Positions 1-54,388 of a stretch of 64,000 nt of DNA are shown one piece after another. Below the pieces are notes generated by a model. The model was not told the origin of the DNA, made no database searches, and worked only from the letters and a program-made list of their open reading frames with translations. Position 1 is the first letter of the stretch. The number at the start of each line of letters is the position of its first letter. This DNA comes from Octopus vulgaris. Lineage: Eukaryota. The position numbers and the translations under genes are program-made. The stretch spans positions 41,602,001 to 41,666,000 of the forward strand of contig OX597822.1 in assembly GCA_951406725.2 (NCBI GenBank). The letters are read 5' to 3'.

Positions 1-92
1 TGTTTTTACGTATTTTCGTATTCTTACTCATGTTATCATTAATATTTTTACGTATTTTTGTATTCTTATTCGTTCCCGTCCTTGTTTTGTAT

Positions 93-238
93 ACATTCGA
101 GGCTTTCTTCCAAGGAATCTAATGAGCTTGGCTTAGATTTTCCTTTGGGGCTGGCCAGGTCGGAGCAATCTCAAGATTAATCAGCCAAAATTGCGAAGAT
201 GATCCGGTTCTTGACTGAATATTGAAGGCTTCGAATGT
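93..238 (+). ncRNA. Second copy of the ring-topology hammerhead with mutated core
   Basis: Same helices, perfect stem I UCAAGA/UCUUGA and K-turn GC-GAA-GA. Core has GAAA changed to AAAA (187) and CUGAAGA to CUGAAUA (220). Confidence 0.55.
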
Positions 239-827
239 CCCGTCCGTGTTTTTTGTATCATCTTCTAAGTGTTTTGCGTTCTTGTCCCAGTTTATATTTT
301 TTTACATATACATATATATATAGCGGCGCCCGTACCCTTTTTGGTCTTGTATGTAAGTACATATTTTCTTTAAACTTGGTACGACTCTATAACACTGTCT
401 CTCTCTCCCTCCTCTCCTACATTTCTCTGCCTTTCACACTTTGCACTCCACTTTGATCTGTCTCTTTCTCTCTCTCTCTCTCTTCTCCTCCTCCATTGTT
501 CCTTGTTCCCCTTTTTTCTCTCTTCCTCTGTCCCTCTTTTCCTCTCTCTTCTCCTCACACTTGACTAACTTTGGACTGCTGTCCTTTTCGTGATTAGCAG
601 CCGCCGAAGCTAGACACATCTTTTTTCTCTCTTCGCCTCAAGCCATTTTTCTAATGCGCCAGCTCAAGTTCACCCGTCCTGTCGAAAAGACGCCCGTCTG
701 TGACGTCCTGTTTTTGTTATTATTATTATCATTATTGTTTTTACGTATTTTCGTATTCTTATTCATGTTATCATTATTATTTTTACGTATTTTTGTATTC
801 TTATTCATTCCCGTCCTTGTTTTGTAT

Positions 828-973
828 ACATTCGAGGCTTTCTTCCAAGGAATCTAATGCGCTTGGCTTAGATTTTCCTTTGGGGCTGGCCAGGTCGGAG
901 CAATCTCAATATTAATCAGCCGAAATTGCGAGGATGATCCGGTTCTTGACTGAAGATTGAAGGCTTCGAATGT
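828..973 (+). ncRNA. Putative hammerhead ribozyme with non-canonical ring topology and kink-turn; intact core
   Basis: CUGAAGA 950-956, GAAA 922-925, AUC site 903-905. Stem I 906-911/944-949, stem II 884-889/916-921, stem III 900-904/925-929. K-turn 897-899/930-935, helix 890-896/936-942, outer 15-bp stem 828-842/959-973. Confidence 0.65.
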
Positions 974-1122
974 CCCGTCCGTGTTTTTTGTATCGTCTTC
1001 TAAATGCTTTGCGTTCTTGTATCAGTTTGTATTTTTTTACATATACATATATATAGCGACGCCCGTACCCTTTTTGGTCTTGTATGTAAGTAAATATTTT
1101 CTTATATATATATATATATATA

Positions 1123-1290
1123 CATCCGACAAGCTTCTTTCAGTTTCCATATGCCAAATCCACTCAAGGTTTTGGTCGGCACGAGGCTATAGTAGAAGAC
1201 ACATGTCCAAGTAAGTTGCCACACAGTGGGACTGAAACATAGAGCCACGTGGTTGGAAAGCAAGCTTCTTACCACAACAGCCAGGCTTGG
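1123..1290 (-). mobile_element. tRNA-derived SINE family A, 5' half
   Basis: Reverse complement of the head seen at 5626 and 53981. Confidence 0.8.
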
Positions 1291-1832
1291 GCCTAGCAGT
1301 TTTTATTTTCCTTTTTTTTATCTACACTTTAAACGATCTCAATAAATGAAGGTTAATTTGTAAACTTTCTCAAGACTAGTGCAGTAGAATAACGTATGCT
1401 ATAAAAGGTATCCATCGGGAGAGGGATTAACGCCGAATATCGTCTTGAAATCTTTATATCTTTGTTGCTTTAAAAGACAATTCAGTACAGTTTAAATTTT
1501 GTTACATTATCTAAATGAGTGAAATTTAATACCTCAAGATTGATGCCACAGAAAAAGAATTGAGCAACAAAAAGTAGTCAAATCAGAAAGTAAAGGCCAA
1601 ATCCATCTTTATGCTATCGTATGTCAATCATTTTAGAAAAATTAATTAATTTAATTCAGCTTTTCTGAACGATCTAAATGAGAGAAATCTGATCCTAAAA
1701 ACCGACTCAAAATTGGCAAAGTAGGATAAATCTTATGGAGCAAAAAGTGATTAAATTTTTGAATGTGACAAAAATTCTGAGGCGTATTAAGCAGTGTGTG
1801 CATGTGTATGTGTGTGTGTGCGCGTGTATGTA

Positions 1833-1893
<61 letters not shown>

Positions 1894-1919
1894 ATATATA
1901 AGGATATATATATATATGG

Positions 1920-1952
<33 letters not shown>

Positions 1953-2154
1953 CATTTATATATATATATATATATACATAAATATATATGTATATGAATG
2001 TATGTAACTGGTCGAGATTTTGAAGTCACTGTCAAAATCATTCATGTTTAAGAATAATTTTGTACTCAATAAAAGTGTAGAGTAACCCATCAGATTAATA
2101 TAAAATTGTTCTTATAACTGAACATAAAAACAAACATTAAAATACATACATACA

Positions 2155-2203
<49 letters not shown>

Positions 2204-2313
2204 ACATATATTTTTTATATACTTCACATCATATATTTTATGTATATTTTGTATATCAATGTTTTTTTATAAACCTTTTTTTTAAAACTTATATCAGTTT
2301 TATCCAGCTTAAG

Positions 2314-2908
2314 GATGGATCGTCTGCTGAAACACGTTGCAGATTGTGTACCTCCAGAAAATCAATCTGGCTTTCGTGTGGGACGTGGCATTGCTGATAT
2401 GATCTTTTCAGCTAGATAGCTTCAGGAGAAGTGTATGGAACAGGGTCTGGATTTATATCAGGTTTTTGTCGATCTGACAAAAGCCTTTGATACCTTTAAT
2501 AGAAATGCACTGTGGAAAGTCCTCCAGAAACTTGGGTGCCCTACAAAGTTCCTTGCTTTGGTTAGGTCTTTTCGTGAAGACATGAAGGGTAGTGTTAATG
2601 TTAGAGGGAAACTGTAAGAGCCTATCTCAATAGAAAATGTAGTGAAACAGGGGGATATTCTGGCACCGACCCTATTTGCCATATATTTTGCGATGTTTTT
2701 TTTGTATTGCATTCAGAAACTGCACATATGGTGTTTATATCCATTATCGAACCTCTGGCAATATATTTAATATCAGGCGCTTTGCTGCAAGAACAAAGGT
2801 GTTTACCTCTATCATAAGAGACCTTTTGTATGCAGAGGATTGTGATCTAGTAGCGCACACAGAGATTGATATGCAACACATTTTGAATGCATTCTCTGGT
2901 GCTTGCAC
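2314..2908 (+). pseudogene. RTE-clade LINE reverse transcriptase fragment
   Basis: PENQSGFR, FVDLTKAFD, LQKLGCP, VKQGDILAPTLF and DLLYAEDC (YADD site), with stops and frameshifts. Confidence 0.9.
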
Positions 2909-3075
2909 CAGCTGAAACTCAATGCTATCGTTAATAGCACGAAATTGCGTCAGACCTACTGGCCGATAACTGATGAGGAACTGGGGAAATTCTGTGTCTA
3001 TTTTCCGTTCGTTTCTGCATTTGCTATATACCTTGCCATTCCGTATCTGTTTTTCATTTGTGCATTTTCTATACA
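2899..3075 (+). mobile_element. Probable PLE terminal repeat, second family, carrying the same ring-topology hammerhead
   Basis: CAAU-G-C-UAUCG-UUAA-UAGCAC-GAAA-UUGCGU...CUGG-C-CGAUA-A-CUGAUGA (2920-2976). Related fragment at about 4367-4440 on the minus strand. Confidence 0.55.
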
Positions 3076-3092
3076 TTTACACACACACACAC

Positions 3093-3138
<46 letters not shown>

Positions 3139-3162
3139 GTACACATATATATAGAAGGACAA

Positions 3163-3362
3163 AGACCTTTTCGGTCTTGAATGACCATGGGTTCGCACCT
3201 AGGACGTTCTCGTCCGAGGCACAAGTCTGGGTGAGGTTGTTTCATTGAAGACCGACAGTCGCCCATGCCAGCCTCCCATACCAGCCTCCCCTCACTACAC
3301 CTCGGATGTTGTCCAAGGGAAAGGCAAAGGCCGATACAGCTTGGCACCAGTGATGTCGCAAT
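3163..3362 (-). mobile_element. SINE family E, 3' part
   Basis: Reverse complement similar to 50065-50257. Confidence 0.75.
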
Positions 3363-3369
3363 CTTTTGA

Positions 3370-3630
3370 CAGCAGCTATGCTGGGGCACAGCCTTGACAG
3401 GTTTAGTCGAACAACGCCTGGTACTTATTCTTGCCGAACAGCTAAGTTACGTGAACATAAGCAAACCAACACCGGTTGCCAAGCAATAATGGCTGAGAAT
3501 CACCTCTCAAGGCTTTAGTCGGTCCGAGGCTATAACAGAAGACATTTGCCCAGGGTACCTCGCATGTAGAACTGAATCCATGACGACATGGTTGAGAAGC
3601 AAGTTTCCTATCACACAGCCACGCCTGTAT
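3370..3630 (-). mobile_element. SINE family A, deleted copy
   Basis: Pieces of the head and 3' half of family A. Confidence 0.7.
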
Positions 3631-4366
3631 ATAGCTATATATGTGTGTGTGCATGCGTTCGTGCGTGTGTGTGCGTGCGTGTGTGTGCGTGCGTGTGTAT
3701 GTGTGTGTGTGTGTGACTACGTATAGCTGTTGCTGTATTAGTCTAAAAGGCATGTATTTTCAAGAAAATGTAAAGACAACTTTATGGCAAAGGTGACAGC
3801 GGGGAGGTGCTGGTTGGGTAGTGGGAGCCTCAGTGATGGTAAAGGTGGTAGTAGGAGGGGAGGCGGAGATACTTTACACAAGGGAGAAAACTAATAGTAC
3901 TCTTAGTTGATGGATTTGTGCGTGTCTATATATCTGTATTAATGTTTAAGTGTGAGAGAGTATGTGTCTAGTGCGTAACGTTTGTGCATGTAGATTTTGG
4001 CCTATATGTACCAACGCAAGTGTATGTATATGTTTGCGAGTGTACAGAGACAAATACATATAGAAGCGTATAAAAGTGCATATATGTGTATATGCGTATA
4101 CATTTACATACATACATACATGACATGACATGACGGCTTCCAATAAATACATGTCCAAAGAAGTGCACACGCATTTTTATATATTTATGTATGATGCATG
4201 TGATTATATATGCGTGTCCATATTTATATACATACATACACATATATATAAATACACACTCACACACATACATATACACACATTAATATATATAATATAT
4301 AATATACTTATATATATATACTTACATATAATATATAATATAATTATATATATACTGAGTGTACAA

Positions 4367-4440
4367 CCGGACGGGAGACAAACACAGAAGGTACCTAATT
4401 CTTCATCAGTATATCAACCGTTTGGTAATACTCAGTATTA
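4367..4440 (-). repeat. Fragment of the second PLE-type repeat family (stem I strand plus CUGAUGA)
   Basis: Minus strand GGTTGATATACTGATGAAGAATTAGG...TTCTGTGT resembles 2961-2998; flanked by TA repeats. Confidence 0.55.
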
Positions 4441-4469
4441 TATATATATATATATATATTCAAAATGTG

Positions 4470-4666
4470 ACCGCGTGTGTACCGTTGGGGATATATATTT
4501 TTTTCCTCCGTCTTCCCTTCTCTGGATCTTTCCTTTTCCTTGTTTCTGCTCGAAATGATCAAACCCTCCTTCTTCCCTTCCTTCCTGAGCGTCCAATAAT
4601 ACCTATATTTGTTCCATGTTCTCAACGTTGTTGTGTTTTCTCTTTGTGTTTTCATGTTTGGATTAA

Positions 4667-4670
<4 letters not shown>
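4470..4670 (+). repeat. Degenerate PLE pseudo-LTR with the hammerhead partly deleted
   Basis: TTTCTG-CTCGAAATG...TTCCTGAGCGTCCAATAATAC parallels 56143-56216; TA-flanked. Confidence 0.5.
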
Positions 4671-4700
<30 letters not shown>

Positions 4701-4879
4701 AGTACAGAGAGAGAGAAGAGAGAGATGAGTGTTTTTTACCTTGTTCCAACAATTAACACGGAAAAAATAAATAAATAGTTACCAGGTTAGCAAAAGTCTC
4801 ACTAAGTAAAGATGTTGTAACTCCTTGTTTATAAAGGTAGAAACTTCGTGTTTACGTGGAGATATTTTTGTATTATATA

Positions 4880-5097
4880 TATAATACAAAAATATCACAA
4901 GAACGCAAAACATCCAACCAGTTAGGTGATAGAAAAAATGGACAACAAAGATCCAGATAGACGATACAAAGAAAACAAGGAGGAGGTCATTCGGAGTTTT
5001 CTTTCCTCAGTCGACTTCCAAATTATCCTTGCAATTTCGGCTGGTTATACTCGAGATTGCACCAGTCTGGCTAGCCCCAAGGAAAAACTAAGCTAAG
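4880..5097 (-). mobile_element. Diverged copy of the 1-1103 pseudo-LTR with ring hammerhead (5' truncated)
   Basis: Minus strand CCTTGGGGCTAGCCAGACTGGTGCAATCTCGAGTATAACCAGCCGAAATTGCAAGGATAATTTGGAAGTCGACTGAGGA, and shares GTTTTGCGTTCTTGT. Confidence 0.75.
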
Positions 5098-5625: not shown

Positions 5626-5787
5626 TAGGCACGGAGGGCTTGTGGTAAGTAGCTTGCTACAAGGATGGTTCCGGGTTCATCCACTGCGTGGCATCTTGGG
5701 CAAGTGTCTTCTGCTATAGCCTTGGGCCGATCAATGCCTTGTGAATGGATTTGGTAGACGGAAACTGAAAGAAGTCTGTCGTATATA

Positions 5788-5840
<53 letters not shown>

Positions 5841-6057
5841 TTGTGTGTCTGTGTTTGTCCCTCTAGCATTGCTTGACAACCGATGCTGGTGTGTTTACGT
5901 CCCCGTCACTTAGCGGTTCAGCAAAAGAGACCGATAGAATAAGTACTAGGCTTACAAAGAATAAATCCCGGGGTCGATTTGCTCGACTAAAGGCGGTGCT
6001 CCAGCATGGCCGCAGTCAAATGACTGAAACATGTAAAAGAGTAAAGAAAGTAAGAGT
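5626..6057 (+). mobile_element. SINE family A, full length with internal (TA)n(TG)n
   Basis: tRNA-like A/B boxes (TGTGGTAAG...GGTTCA), conserved body, GTAAAAGA tail; many copies in window. Confidence 0.9.
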
Positions 6058-7427: not shown

Positions 7428-8326
7428 CATATGCATCATCGAAGCTAAAACTCTACAAAAAGTTATCTGCGAGTTTCTTGCTTCCGATTTTTGGACGATA
7501 ATGAGCATAAGAAATTGTTTAAAACAGATGGAACTAAAGCTTTGAAGGGATTAGACAAGCTTTGTTAGGTTAATTATTCTGATTGGTTTACCAAATAACG
7601 GTTGTACAAAAATATAAAAATGGGAGAAATAAATAGATGGTGTTAGGGATTATATCATCTAGAGAAGATAAGAGGAGGGAAAAGCGGAAGACGAGCCATA
7701 AATAATGAAATGAAATCTTGAAAGAGAAAGAGTAAAAGAAAGCAGTCGAATAAGGGTAAGGATTTTTACAAAAATATAGCTTTTTAAAAATTATGTCCTG
7801 TTGAATGTGAAATACAAATCTGCAGTTTAGCAAGCGGTGAACAGAAAAAAGTTTATTAAAATCTGCTTCAGGGAATGGTCAGAATGTGGCGGGGAAGAAC
7901 TTTATCTCAAAGATCAGTCGTTACGAAGAAAACATTGAAAAAGTAAATATTTAAAAGCAAGCCTGCAGGAATGTAACAACGGTTTTTTTCGTTTTGAAGC
8001 TTATAGGTCTTAGCAATAGAATGAGAATATTACAATGTAGCTTTAAATAAGAGCCATACTTGTAGAATGCAATGTGCTTTCTACACTAAACTTACACATA
8101 ATAAATTACTTTAAATATTGCCTTAAATTTAGAAACCAAAGAATATCACTTATTTAGAAAGCTAAATGAAAAGTCAGGTACATAAATTTCTCTTCCAACC
8201 ATTTGCTTATCATTATACATCTTGATAATACAAAAATTCTAGAATGTTTCTCTGTACCCGAGATATCTCAGAAATAGTATGTTTTATCTTAATTTTTTTG
8301 CATATTTATTTTCATAATTATTTTCA

Positions 8327-8765
8327 CAGGCCAAGGAGTTACTGTGTCGTAAGTACTTTGCTTACCAATCACATGGTTCCGGGTTCAGTCCCACTGCGTG
8401 GCACCTTGGGCAAGCGTCTTCTACTATAGCCTCGGGCCGACCAAAGCCTTGTGAGTGGATTTGGTAGACGGAAACTGAAAGAAGCCCGTCGTATATATGT
8501 ATATATATATATATATATGTGTGTGTTTGTGTGTGTGTGTGGGTGTGTGTGTGTGTGTGTGTGTGTGTTTGTCCCCCAACATCGCTTGACAACCGATATT
8601 GGTGTGTTTATGTCCTCGCAACCTAGCGGTTTGGCAAAAGAGAATGATAGAATAAGTACTAAGCTTACATATAATAAGTCGTAGTGTCGATTTGCTCGAC
8701 TAAAACGCGGTGCTCCAGTATGGCCGCAGTCAAATGACTGAAATAAGTAAAAGAATAAAAGAATA
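8327..8765 (+). mobile_element. SINE family A, full length
   Basis: Aligns end to end with 5626-6057. Confidence 0.9.
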
Positions 8766-42594: not shown

Positions 42595-42964
42595 CATATA
42601 CACTTATGTCAAACGGGATTGGCCACAACAGGAAAAATAAGAAAAAAAGCACATACAAAGGACGTGTATATGCTCATCAGTTATCAGCCAAAAATCATCA
42701 CATTTTCGGCACCTTCCAATAAATAATATTGTTAATTTTGACGGTGTCAGGGACATAAGCTCTTACAGAACAAATAAGCGGACATGATAGACGAACACCA
42801 GCAATAAAGAATAAAACGAGTTATGAGGAAAACAGGAAAAATATATTTAAGACAAAAGAAACAAATATGCGAGGACAGTAACAAATATATATATAGCAAA
42901 CGACACAGAGACATTTGTATACATAAAAAAGCCTTTTGGCTATGCGATAATATATATATATATA

Positions 42965-53760: not shown

Positions 53761-53981
53761 ATGTGTGTGTAATGGTTGACTAACAGGTTAGGGATAGAAA
53801 GCGAGGATGAAAGAAGAGACTGCTGTGGTTTGTAGGGATGGTGATGGACTAAACATGAAGAGCTTTCAGAATAATTAATGTGCTCAAAGATAAGGTTGGT
53901 CACCAGAAGAACCAAATAGAGTAGAAAAAGAGAATAAGTACAACCTGGTTTATATATCCACAGTAAATACACATATATACA

Positions 53982-54388
53982 TAGGCGCAGGAGTGGCTGT
54001 GTGGTAAGTAGCTTGCTAACCAACCACATGGCTCCGGGTTCACTCCTACTGCGTGGCATCTTGTGCAAGTGTCTTCTGCTATAGCCCCGGGCCGACCAAT
54101 GCCTTGTGAGTGGATTTGGTAGACGGAAACTGAAAGAAGCCTGTCGTATATATATATATATATATGTGTGTGTGTATGTGTATGTGTTTGTCCCCCTGCA
54201 TTGCTTGACAACCGATGCTGGTGTGTTTACGTCCCTGTCACTTAGCGGTTCGGCAAAAGAGACCGATAGAATAAGTACTGGTCTTACAAAGAATAAGTCC
54301 CGGGGTCGATTTGCTCGACTAAAGGTGGTGCTCCAGCATGGCCGCAGTCAAGTGACTGAAACAGGTAAAAGAGTAAGAGTAAAAGAGT
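53982..54388 (+). mobile_element. SINE family A, full length
   Basis: Very close to 5626-6057. Confidence 0.92.

Follow-up and report, generated by a model that had tools for sequence, protein, structure and literature searches.

We identified a family of repeats in the Octopus vulgaris genome that very probably represents a functional hammerhead ribozyme family, carried in the 3' terminal repeat of Naiads (Penelope-like elements) and their non-autonomous derivatives, with the ring of catalytic strands split open and a predicted cut after C905. The copy described here lies at positions 828 to 973 of the plus strand of the window, that is, the whole 64,000-nucleotide stretch that was analyzed (assembly GCA_951406725.2, contig OX597822.1, positions 41,602,001 to 41,666,000 of a 2.8-Gb genome), and coordinates below are window positions.

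Core, helices, and copies

Each element named in the initial annotation sits at its coordinate on the plus strand, and its statement that the order of core strands lies outside types I to III was upheld, the order being reversed and without an Rfam hammerhead match. From 5' to 3', the copy begins with the 5' strand of the closing helix, helix IV (828 to 842), whose partner (959 to 973) follows two U's facing two U's; the helix was taken from the MFE fold, and its junction-proximal part covaries between families. Hairpin V (845 to 883), also from the MFE fold, ends directly 5' of G10.1, and families A, B, E, F, and G have a hairpin of differing sequence at this place. The stem II 5' strand GGCUGG (884 to 889, G10.1 being G884) is located 5' of the remaining core and covaries with the 3' strand UCAGCC (916 to 921, C11.1 being C921), and the helix d 5' strand (890 to 896), which corresponds to the interaction helix between stems I and II in type SGC, covaries with its 3' strand (936 to 942). 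These are followed by the nonbulged K-turn strand GGA (897 to 899; 3n, G2n, and A1n), seen in aligned copies and family consensuses, the stem III strand (900 to 904), which ends in U16.1, and H17 at C905, where a step in 5'-truncation density supports the predicted cut (905/906). The stem I strand 3' of the cut (906 to 911) leads into the linker UUAA (912 to 915), which runs from the stem I tip to the stem II tip as in type SGC and measures 1 to 4 nt across families. Beyond stem II, positions 922 to 929 hold G12-A13-A14-A15.1 (GAAA, 922 to 925) and the stem III partner strand (925 to 929), followed by the bulged K-turn strand (930 to 935; a variable 3-nt loop, G1b, A2b, and 3b), the covarying stem I partner strand (944 to 949), and CUGAAGA (950 to 956), corresponding to C3-U4-G5-A6-N7-G8-A9.

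The window copy has a flaw in stem I, U910 opposite U945, where the family has G910 in about 99% of contig depth, and another in helix d, A892-C940. The window held 3 matches to the core part of the search pattern, where 0.01 would be expected, and none of 100 shuffles reached 3. Folded alone, positions 820 to 980 gave a modestly stable MFE structure (z -1.79) in which the closing stem, the hairpin, and stem II formed and a competing hairpin replaced helix d and stem I; the full fold is pseudoknotted and beyond scoring by a nested MFE tool. An Rfam search of positions 1 to 5000 (E <= 10) returned 63 matches, with no ribozyme and no hammerhead among them.

All 8 family and subfamily consensuses contained C3 U4 G5 A6 N7 G8 A9, G12 A13 A14, A15.1-U16.1, an H17 other than G, and G10.1-C11.1, with A, U, G, or C at N7 depending on the family and C or A at H17. 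Stem I was paired in 46 of 48 and stem III in 40 of 40 consensus cells, and helix d in 46 of 49 (family F, whose bend differs, was omitted). A, E, F, and G have mutually unrelated stem II sequences, in which the two mates change together by family (GGCUG/CAGCC, GACAC/GUGUC, GAAGG/CCUUC, GCRCC/GGYGC), with helix lengths constant across families. In 18 aligned copies, 92.7% of cells were paired over the 23 pairs of stems I through III plus helix d, compared to 21% to 44% in slid-register controls, and two-sided changes were identified in 16 of the 23 pairs (5 of 7 in helix d). The covariation score was 0.530 against 0.264 for shuffled copies, with 0 of 500 shuffles reaching it; these copies are related and were chosen for good preservation, which inflates the shuffle contrast. 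The pairing scheme of the initial annotation was thus borne out across families. Consensuses of E, F, and G also retained the core though their copies were collected by DNA similarity and not by the core pattern (1,746, 1,663, and 297 candidates, respectively), and their N7 and H17 vary as hammerheads allow. Judged from sequence conservation and covariation, the ribozyme is a real hammerhead under selection.

The pattern combining core and K-turn letters gave 2,513 + 2,552 matches in the genome, that is, at least 5,065 core-intact matches, and the reversed pattern gave 0 + 0. A first look with positions 825 to 976 had returned 2,331 candidates in the 2.8-Gb genome, and a looser pattern revealed divergent families (327 matches, control 36). 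The window copy belongs to a full 735-nt non-coding unit, a non-autonomous Penelope-like element (368 to 1103, plus strand), whose body ends near 1055 and whose tail extends to about 1103. Upstream of this unit is a partial repeat that begins 27 nt before the window, with a tandem ribozyme copy 735 nt earlier (93 to 238, plus strand) whose core is damaged by A in place of G12 at 187 and U in place of G8 at 220. Further copies comprise one of subfamily B (5004 to 5079, minus strand, 76 bits), an old degenerate one of another family with a GACAC-type stem II (42674 to 42750, minus strand, 29.6 bits), and a possible degenerate one of yet another family (2899 to 2976, plus strand; stem II GUGCU/AGCAC, G at position 17), matched weakly at 13.1 bits (E 0.14). 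Directly 5' of the latter, at about 2320 to 2900 on the plus strand, is a degraded reverse-transcriptase-like coding fragment, which we take from its motifs to be of non-LTR type. The window also contains many copies of a dispersed 200-nt SINE-like repeat beside (TA)n, for example, at 1130 to 1290, 5681 to 6045, 8309 to 8554, and 53964 to 54379. Contigs under six organism labels contain part of the window stretch.

Splitting of the catalytic block

Type SGC (HRIMA-1), with reversed strand order, a short I-II linker, and helix d, was described and validated by Eckert et al. 2023 (PMC10085705), where it cleaves in vitro and requires all four helices. The octopus RNA shares with it the reversed ring S-G-C, the intact core, the I-II linker of about 3 nt, and helix d. 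Type SGC opens between helix d and stem III and has CUGANGA joined to the stem II strand (PMC10085705), whereas in the octopus form the K-turn strand connects helix d to stem III and the opening is at A9/G10.1, at a four-way junction. Type CSG, known in the same paper from two metagenome sequences, represents a third way of opening this ring, the break lying between stem III and helix d and block C being intact. The octopus RNA has the ring order of types SGC and CSG, the short linker, and the interaction helix, and its block C is interrupted; the three are different openings of one ring, the octopus one being inside the block. This block (CUGANGA plus the stem II strand) was assumed to be unsplittable by Eckert et al., according to whom known alignments lack insertions of more than 1 to 2 nt at A9/G10.1 (PMC10085705).

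The opening at A9/G10.1 proposed in the initial annotation has one obvious competitor, an ordinary type SGC ribozyme with the stem II strand directly 3' of CUGANGA and the upstream match incidental. The S-G-C order and linker fit this type (PMC10085705), and GGCU occurs 5 nt 3' of A9 in the window's subfamily, but the stem II registers after A9 paired in 8, 16, and 19 consensus cells out of 40, compared with 39 out of 40 for the first five pairs with the upstream partner, and the bases after A9 pair instead with the strand 5' of hairpin V. The covariation largely refutes this arrangement, and we give it hardly any probability. The hairpin of families A, B, E, F, and G stops either at G10.1 or one nucleotide short of it, and pairing with the strand immediately 5' of the hairpin begins at A9 or no more than two bases away from it. 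What holds generally is a helix starting at, or at most 2 nt from, A9; a closing stem of 15 bp is peculiar to the window's subfamily. Support for helices IV and V was read family by family, automatic helix picks being wrong for G, E, and D, the last with 3 copies, two of them truncated. On this evidence, helices IV, V, and II and the core form a four-way junction at A9/G10.1, in which V may stack on IV and II on the core. The 15-bp stem and hairpin that the initial annotation saw as holding CUGANGA near stem II are both present, as parts of a conserved four-way junction and not as accessories.

What is new is the split catalytic block, the four-way junction, the octopod K-turn, and the setting in animal genomes and Naiads; of the novelty claimed at the outset, the reversed order, the short linker, and helix d were already known. 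In the main text of Eckert et al. 2023 (PMC10085705), "kink," "K-turn," and "Octopus" have 0 occurrences, and type SGC is reported there only from metatranscriptomes, whereas the octopus form is repeated at high copy number in an animal genome. In the literature covered, no description was found of a hammerhead opened at A9/G10.1 or of one containing a natural K-turn, though a variant with extra helices at that place may have been described in older papers. That standard descriptors miss the ribozyme also proved correct, with no Rfam match and with the RNAmotif files of Eckert et al. needing the stem II strand right after CUGAUGA. With a split-block form added, the scheme of six permutations no longer covers every case, and no current descriptor detects this form.

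Naiad hosts and the bend between stem III and helix d

The Penelope-like context suggested by the initial annotation was confirmed through family E, which in its ribozyme part is letter for letter the 3' end of the autonomous elements Naiad_Obim and Naiad_Ovul in the published consensus files. In these consensuses, the ribozyme is on the coding strand, about 1 kb 3' of an ORF with N-terminal GIY-YIG and C-terminal RT, which thus lies upstream of the terminal repeat for family E. The window's family is non-coding and has no Naiad ORF; the Naiad ORF was not recovered in sampled genome loci, and an autonomous element was not found for families A, B, F, and G. We infer that the window's family A may be mobilized by the Naiad enzyme. 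Naiads were reported to lack a canonical hammerhead by Craig et al. 2021 (PMC8557442), who list eight "half core" Naiads ("HHR_half_core"), Naiad_Ovul among them; the split structure went unrecognized in the text and files of that paper.

Among the octopus copies are partial tandems and inverted 5'-truncated partners, a 3' tail is present, and the targets are (TA)n or microsatellites, the same insertion pattern as that of Naiads (PMC8557442). Non-coding units measured 721 to 786 nt in family A and 863 to 910 nt in family F, and 15 tandem pairs were listed at 563 to 910 nt apart, with some loci counted twice. Like metazoan non-LTR retrozymes as described by Cervera and de la Pena 2020 (PMC7229834), they are non-coding, tandem, low in GC, hammerhead-bearing, and present in thousands of copies. 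Retrozymes have canonical type I hammerheads, units of 150 to 450 nt, and circRNAs (PMC7229834), whereas the octopus units are 720 to 910 nt long and mostly 5'-truncated, with a hammerhead that is not of type I. At 353 to 600 of the window (plus strand), we observed a possible spliceosomal intron (GUAAGU at 353, CUAAC at 565 to 569, AG at 597/600), with the donor in 5 of 7 family A tandem loci (720 to 790 nt, first match intact) and the branch point less often; Penelope elements carry an intron at this boundary according to Craig et al. 2021 (PMC8557442).

Two young Penelope-like elements adjacent to some copies were considered as partners and rejected, having no common ribozyme and being separate insertions, with the adjacency arising through common microsatellite targets. 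One of them, a very young element (L158 and L213; G000:C16, C3), has a 717-aa ORF with C-terminal GIY-YIG, 2.6-kb tandem units, at least 147 copies identical over 120 aa, and a type-I-like hammerhead at its 3' end with CCGAAGA instead of CUGANGA. The other (L198 and L211; G000:C15, C9) has a 784-aa ORF, 4.4-kb tandem units, and a hammerhead-like 3' motif with an altered core; neither fragment was named in a Pfam search.

We surveyed by eye the last 450 to 600 bases of 32 of the 54 Naiad consensuses in File S5 of PMC8557442. The split architecture with helices IV and V was identified in full in 8 of the 32 ends (Obim, Ovul, Amil, Aacu, Anas, 3_Chem, 2_Movir, and Plae), from octopus, corals, a hydrozoan, a box jellyfish, and an acanthocephalan, which amount to about five independent cases, the three Acropora and the two Octopus entries being near-duplicates. 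Amil, Aacu, Anas, 3_Chem, 2_Movir, and Plae have ribozyme sequences unrelated to the octopus form. Degenerate split forms were identified in 2 ends (Bfor and Esco), type CSG in 6 ends from nematode and spider (Parc, 2_Nbra, 3_Nbra, Hcon, Hpol, and Smim), and no clear ribozyme in 14. Twister-like motifs (UCACAAG loop) were observed in the remaining 2, at the 3' ends of Naiad-1_Movir and Naiad-4_Chem. The split ribozyme is probably the unrecognized hammerhead of many Naiad elements, and the ends surveyed suggest an exchange of one ribozyme class for another at the Naiad 3' end. A common conserved, structured-looking non-hammerhead motif was also observed at the 3' ends of Naiad_CGi, 1_Skow, 1_Chem, and 2_Chem. 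In the two Clytia Naiads, this motif is preceded on its 5' side by a stretch that is presumably HDV-like.

A standard kink-turn, such as Kt-7 or that of box C/D RNA, has a 3-nt bulge, G.A and A.G pairs, and a C-G closing pair. The signature reported in the initial annotation was recovered in 7 of the 8 consensuses, with the 3-nt bulge and tandem G.A/A.G in standard register, whereas family F deviates in keeping the tandem GA/AG with a non-standard loop. The C-G closing pair was present in 6 of 8 family consensuses, with U-A in E. G2n and A1n were invariant in 18 of 18 aligned copies, the search pattern itself holding GGA or GA, and the loop varied (GAG, GAA, UAA, AAA, GAU, AAU) while GA was constant. 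Families E and G have U.U at 3b.3n, and we take their K-turn to be box C/D-like. In the non-octopod split Naiads, the bend between stem III and helix d is a bulge, an internal loop, or a side hairpin by eye, with no K-turn. The K-turn signature at the bend was present in octopod families and not in cnidarian and acanthocephalan Naiads, which have bulges or a side hairpin there; judged from the consensuses, the K-turn would be one solution for the bend, seen in octopod families.

There was no convincing match among the metagenome (at least 120) and viral (87) pattern loci: in the helix test, 1 of 120 metagenome loci was marginal and the rest failed, and 0 of 87 viral loci passed. A covariance model run over 100 sources gave two weak metagenome matches, with no upstream stem II by eye; this model is not sensitive, having missed families E (L080) and F.

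Truncated copies and proposed mechanism

Truncated family A copies were collected with a query intact from 922 on and mismatched at 884 to 888, and the first 100 of its 1,867 matches covered 85 distinct loci, tallied by hand on one chromosome stretch. The first element base fell at 906 to 922 in 70 of these loci and at 889 to 905, a window of equal length (17 nt), in 7, while 4 began at 885 to 888 and 4 were internal deletions. A second family A search with a different anchor found 15 copies beginning at 923 to 944 on the same stretch, and the step was significant (binomial p 2e-14 and 2e-13). In a script check of the first 26 loci, 22 started at or after 906, and most of the checked loci were single inserts ending near 1055. 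About 21 of the 70 starts clustered at 915, the peak, and just 6 were exactly at 906, so that trimming or microhomology annealing to (TA)n must be invoked. In family F, 18 of 22 truncated copies began on the 3' side of the predicted cut (18 vs 4, p 1.4e-4), and in family E, 6 of 10 did, giving no significant step (6 vs 3 to 4, p 0.38), the filter having let full-length copies through. We read the pile-up of 5' truncations just 3' of 905/906 as an indirect, genomic footprint of in vivo cleavage, left by reverse transcriptase running off the cleaved end, and the ribozyme is probably active in vivo. Two further loci were noted, an inverted family F pair whose junction is at the predicted cleavage site (G000:C1:89951440) and a family A copy whose 3' end is joined directly to a truncated family F ribozyme (G000:C2:10349319), the latter suggesting template switching or targeting between families.

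In the mechanism that we propose, the three core strands would be arranged in a reversed, non-circular order, and a long hairpin (helix d, a sharp bend, and stem III) would bear a 20-nt loop that pairs with both flanks to give stems II and I. The tips of stems I and II would be tied covalently, replacing the usual loop-loop contact, and in octopod families the bend would be the K-turn, which may fold helix d back. The chain would enter at G10.1 and exit at A9, and the four-way junction of hairpin V (5' of G10.1), helix IV (3' of A9), stem II, and the core would keep A9 against G12/G10.1 without a covalent link. The RNA would cleave 3' of position 17 (C905), and the 3' product, retaining the end recognized by the element's reverse transcriptase, would be copied back as inserts of 140 to 150 nt starting at or just after the cut. 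Crude three-bead rigid-helix 3D models, built with A-form and core distances and never strain-free, closed the ring only with a tight bend (about 10 to 40 degrees) and a frayed sixth stem II pair, a pair that is often a wobble or mismatch in families; the best closed model had a strain of 88 against 70 for the open control. These models make a cis ring plausible, not proven.

The active form of minimal Penelope hammerheads is a dimer, and the same pairings could be formed here by a dimer or domain-swapped pair from tandem copies instead of a cis monomer, a reading we consider unlikely. It would suit the occurrence of copies in tandem, covariation is blind to cis versus trans, and a closed chain, passing twice along three helices, might be knotted, as in 12 of 31 crude models. 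The other 19 were unknotted, as were 5 of the 6 with the lowest strain (88 to 129 vs 70 to 83 for the open control), helix lengths are constant across families, as expected of a tight ring, local closure of the junction by helices IV and V was seen in each family examined, and type SGC was assayed as cis co-transcriptional cleavage (PMC10085705). Somewhat less probable still is that the hammerhead-derived RNA now mainly binds protein (of the L7Ae family, or RT) and cleaves little, with truncations due to RT stalling and (TA)n microhomology. In its favor, much of the RNA goes uncut, given the many full-length and tandem copies in which the ribozyme is intact; truncations peak at the AU-rich 915; and the K-turn of E and G resembles that of box C/D RNAs. 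Against this, the same AUC at 894 and 903 has 1 and 2 to 3 events compared to about 21 at 915, a structural stall would be unexpected at 915, where all local helix partners have already been copied, and the catalytic residues, but not the K-turn, are retained in three phyla among the Naiad consensuses surveyed. The preferred reading remains a cis-folding ribozyme that would cut after C905. In its widest form, which we offer tentatively and think rather less likely than not to hold as a whole, this would be an ancient cross-phylum hammerhead, folding in cis and with its block split by the four-way junction, whose octopod K-turn is bound by the host's Snu13/15.5K (L7Ae family) to close the ring, with a protein-gated balance between cutting and full-length copying of the retrotransposon RNA.

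The split block breaks the stated rule that CUGANGA and the stem II strand stay together, and the K-turn suggests how the geometric puzzle of Eckert et al., the joining of helix d to stem III, could be solved. The truncation step may serve as a readout of ribozyme cleavage from genome sequence alone. Non-circular permutations now have named animal genomes as their setting, where thousands of copies are available for dating and covariation analysis, and the K-turn would provide a possible handle for protein control.
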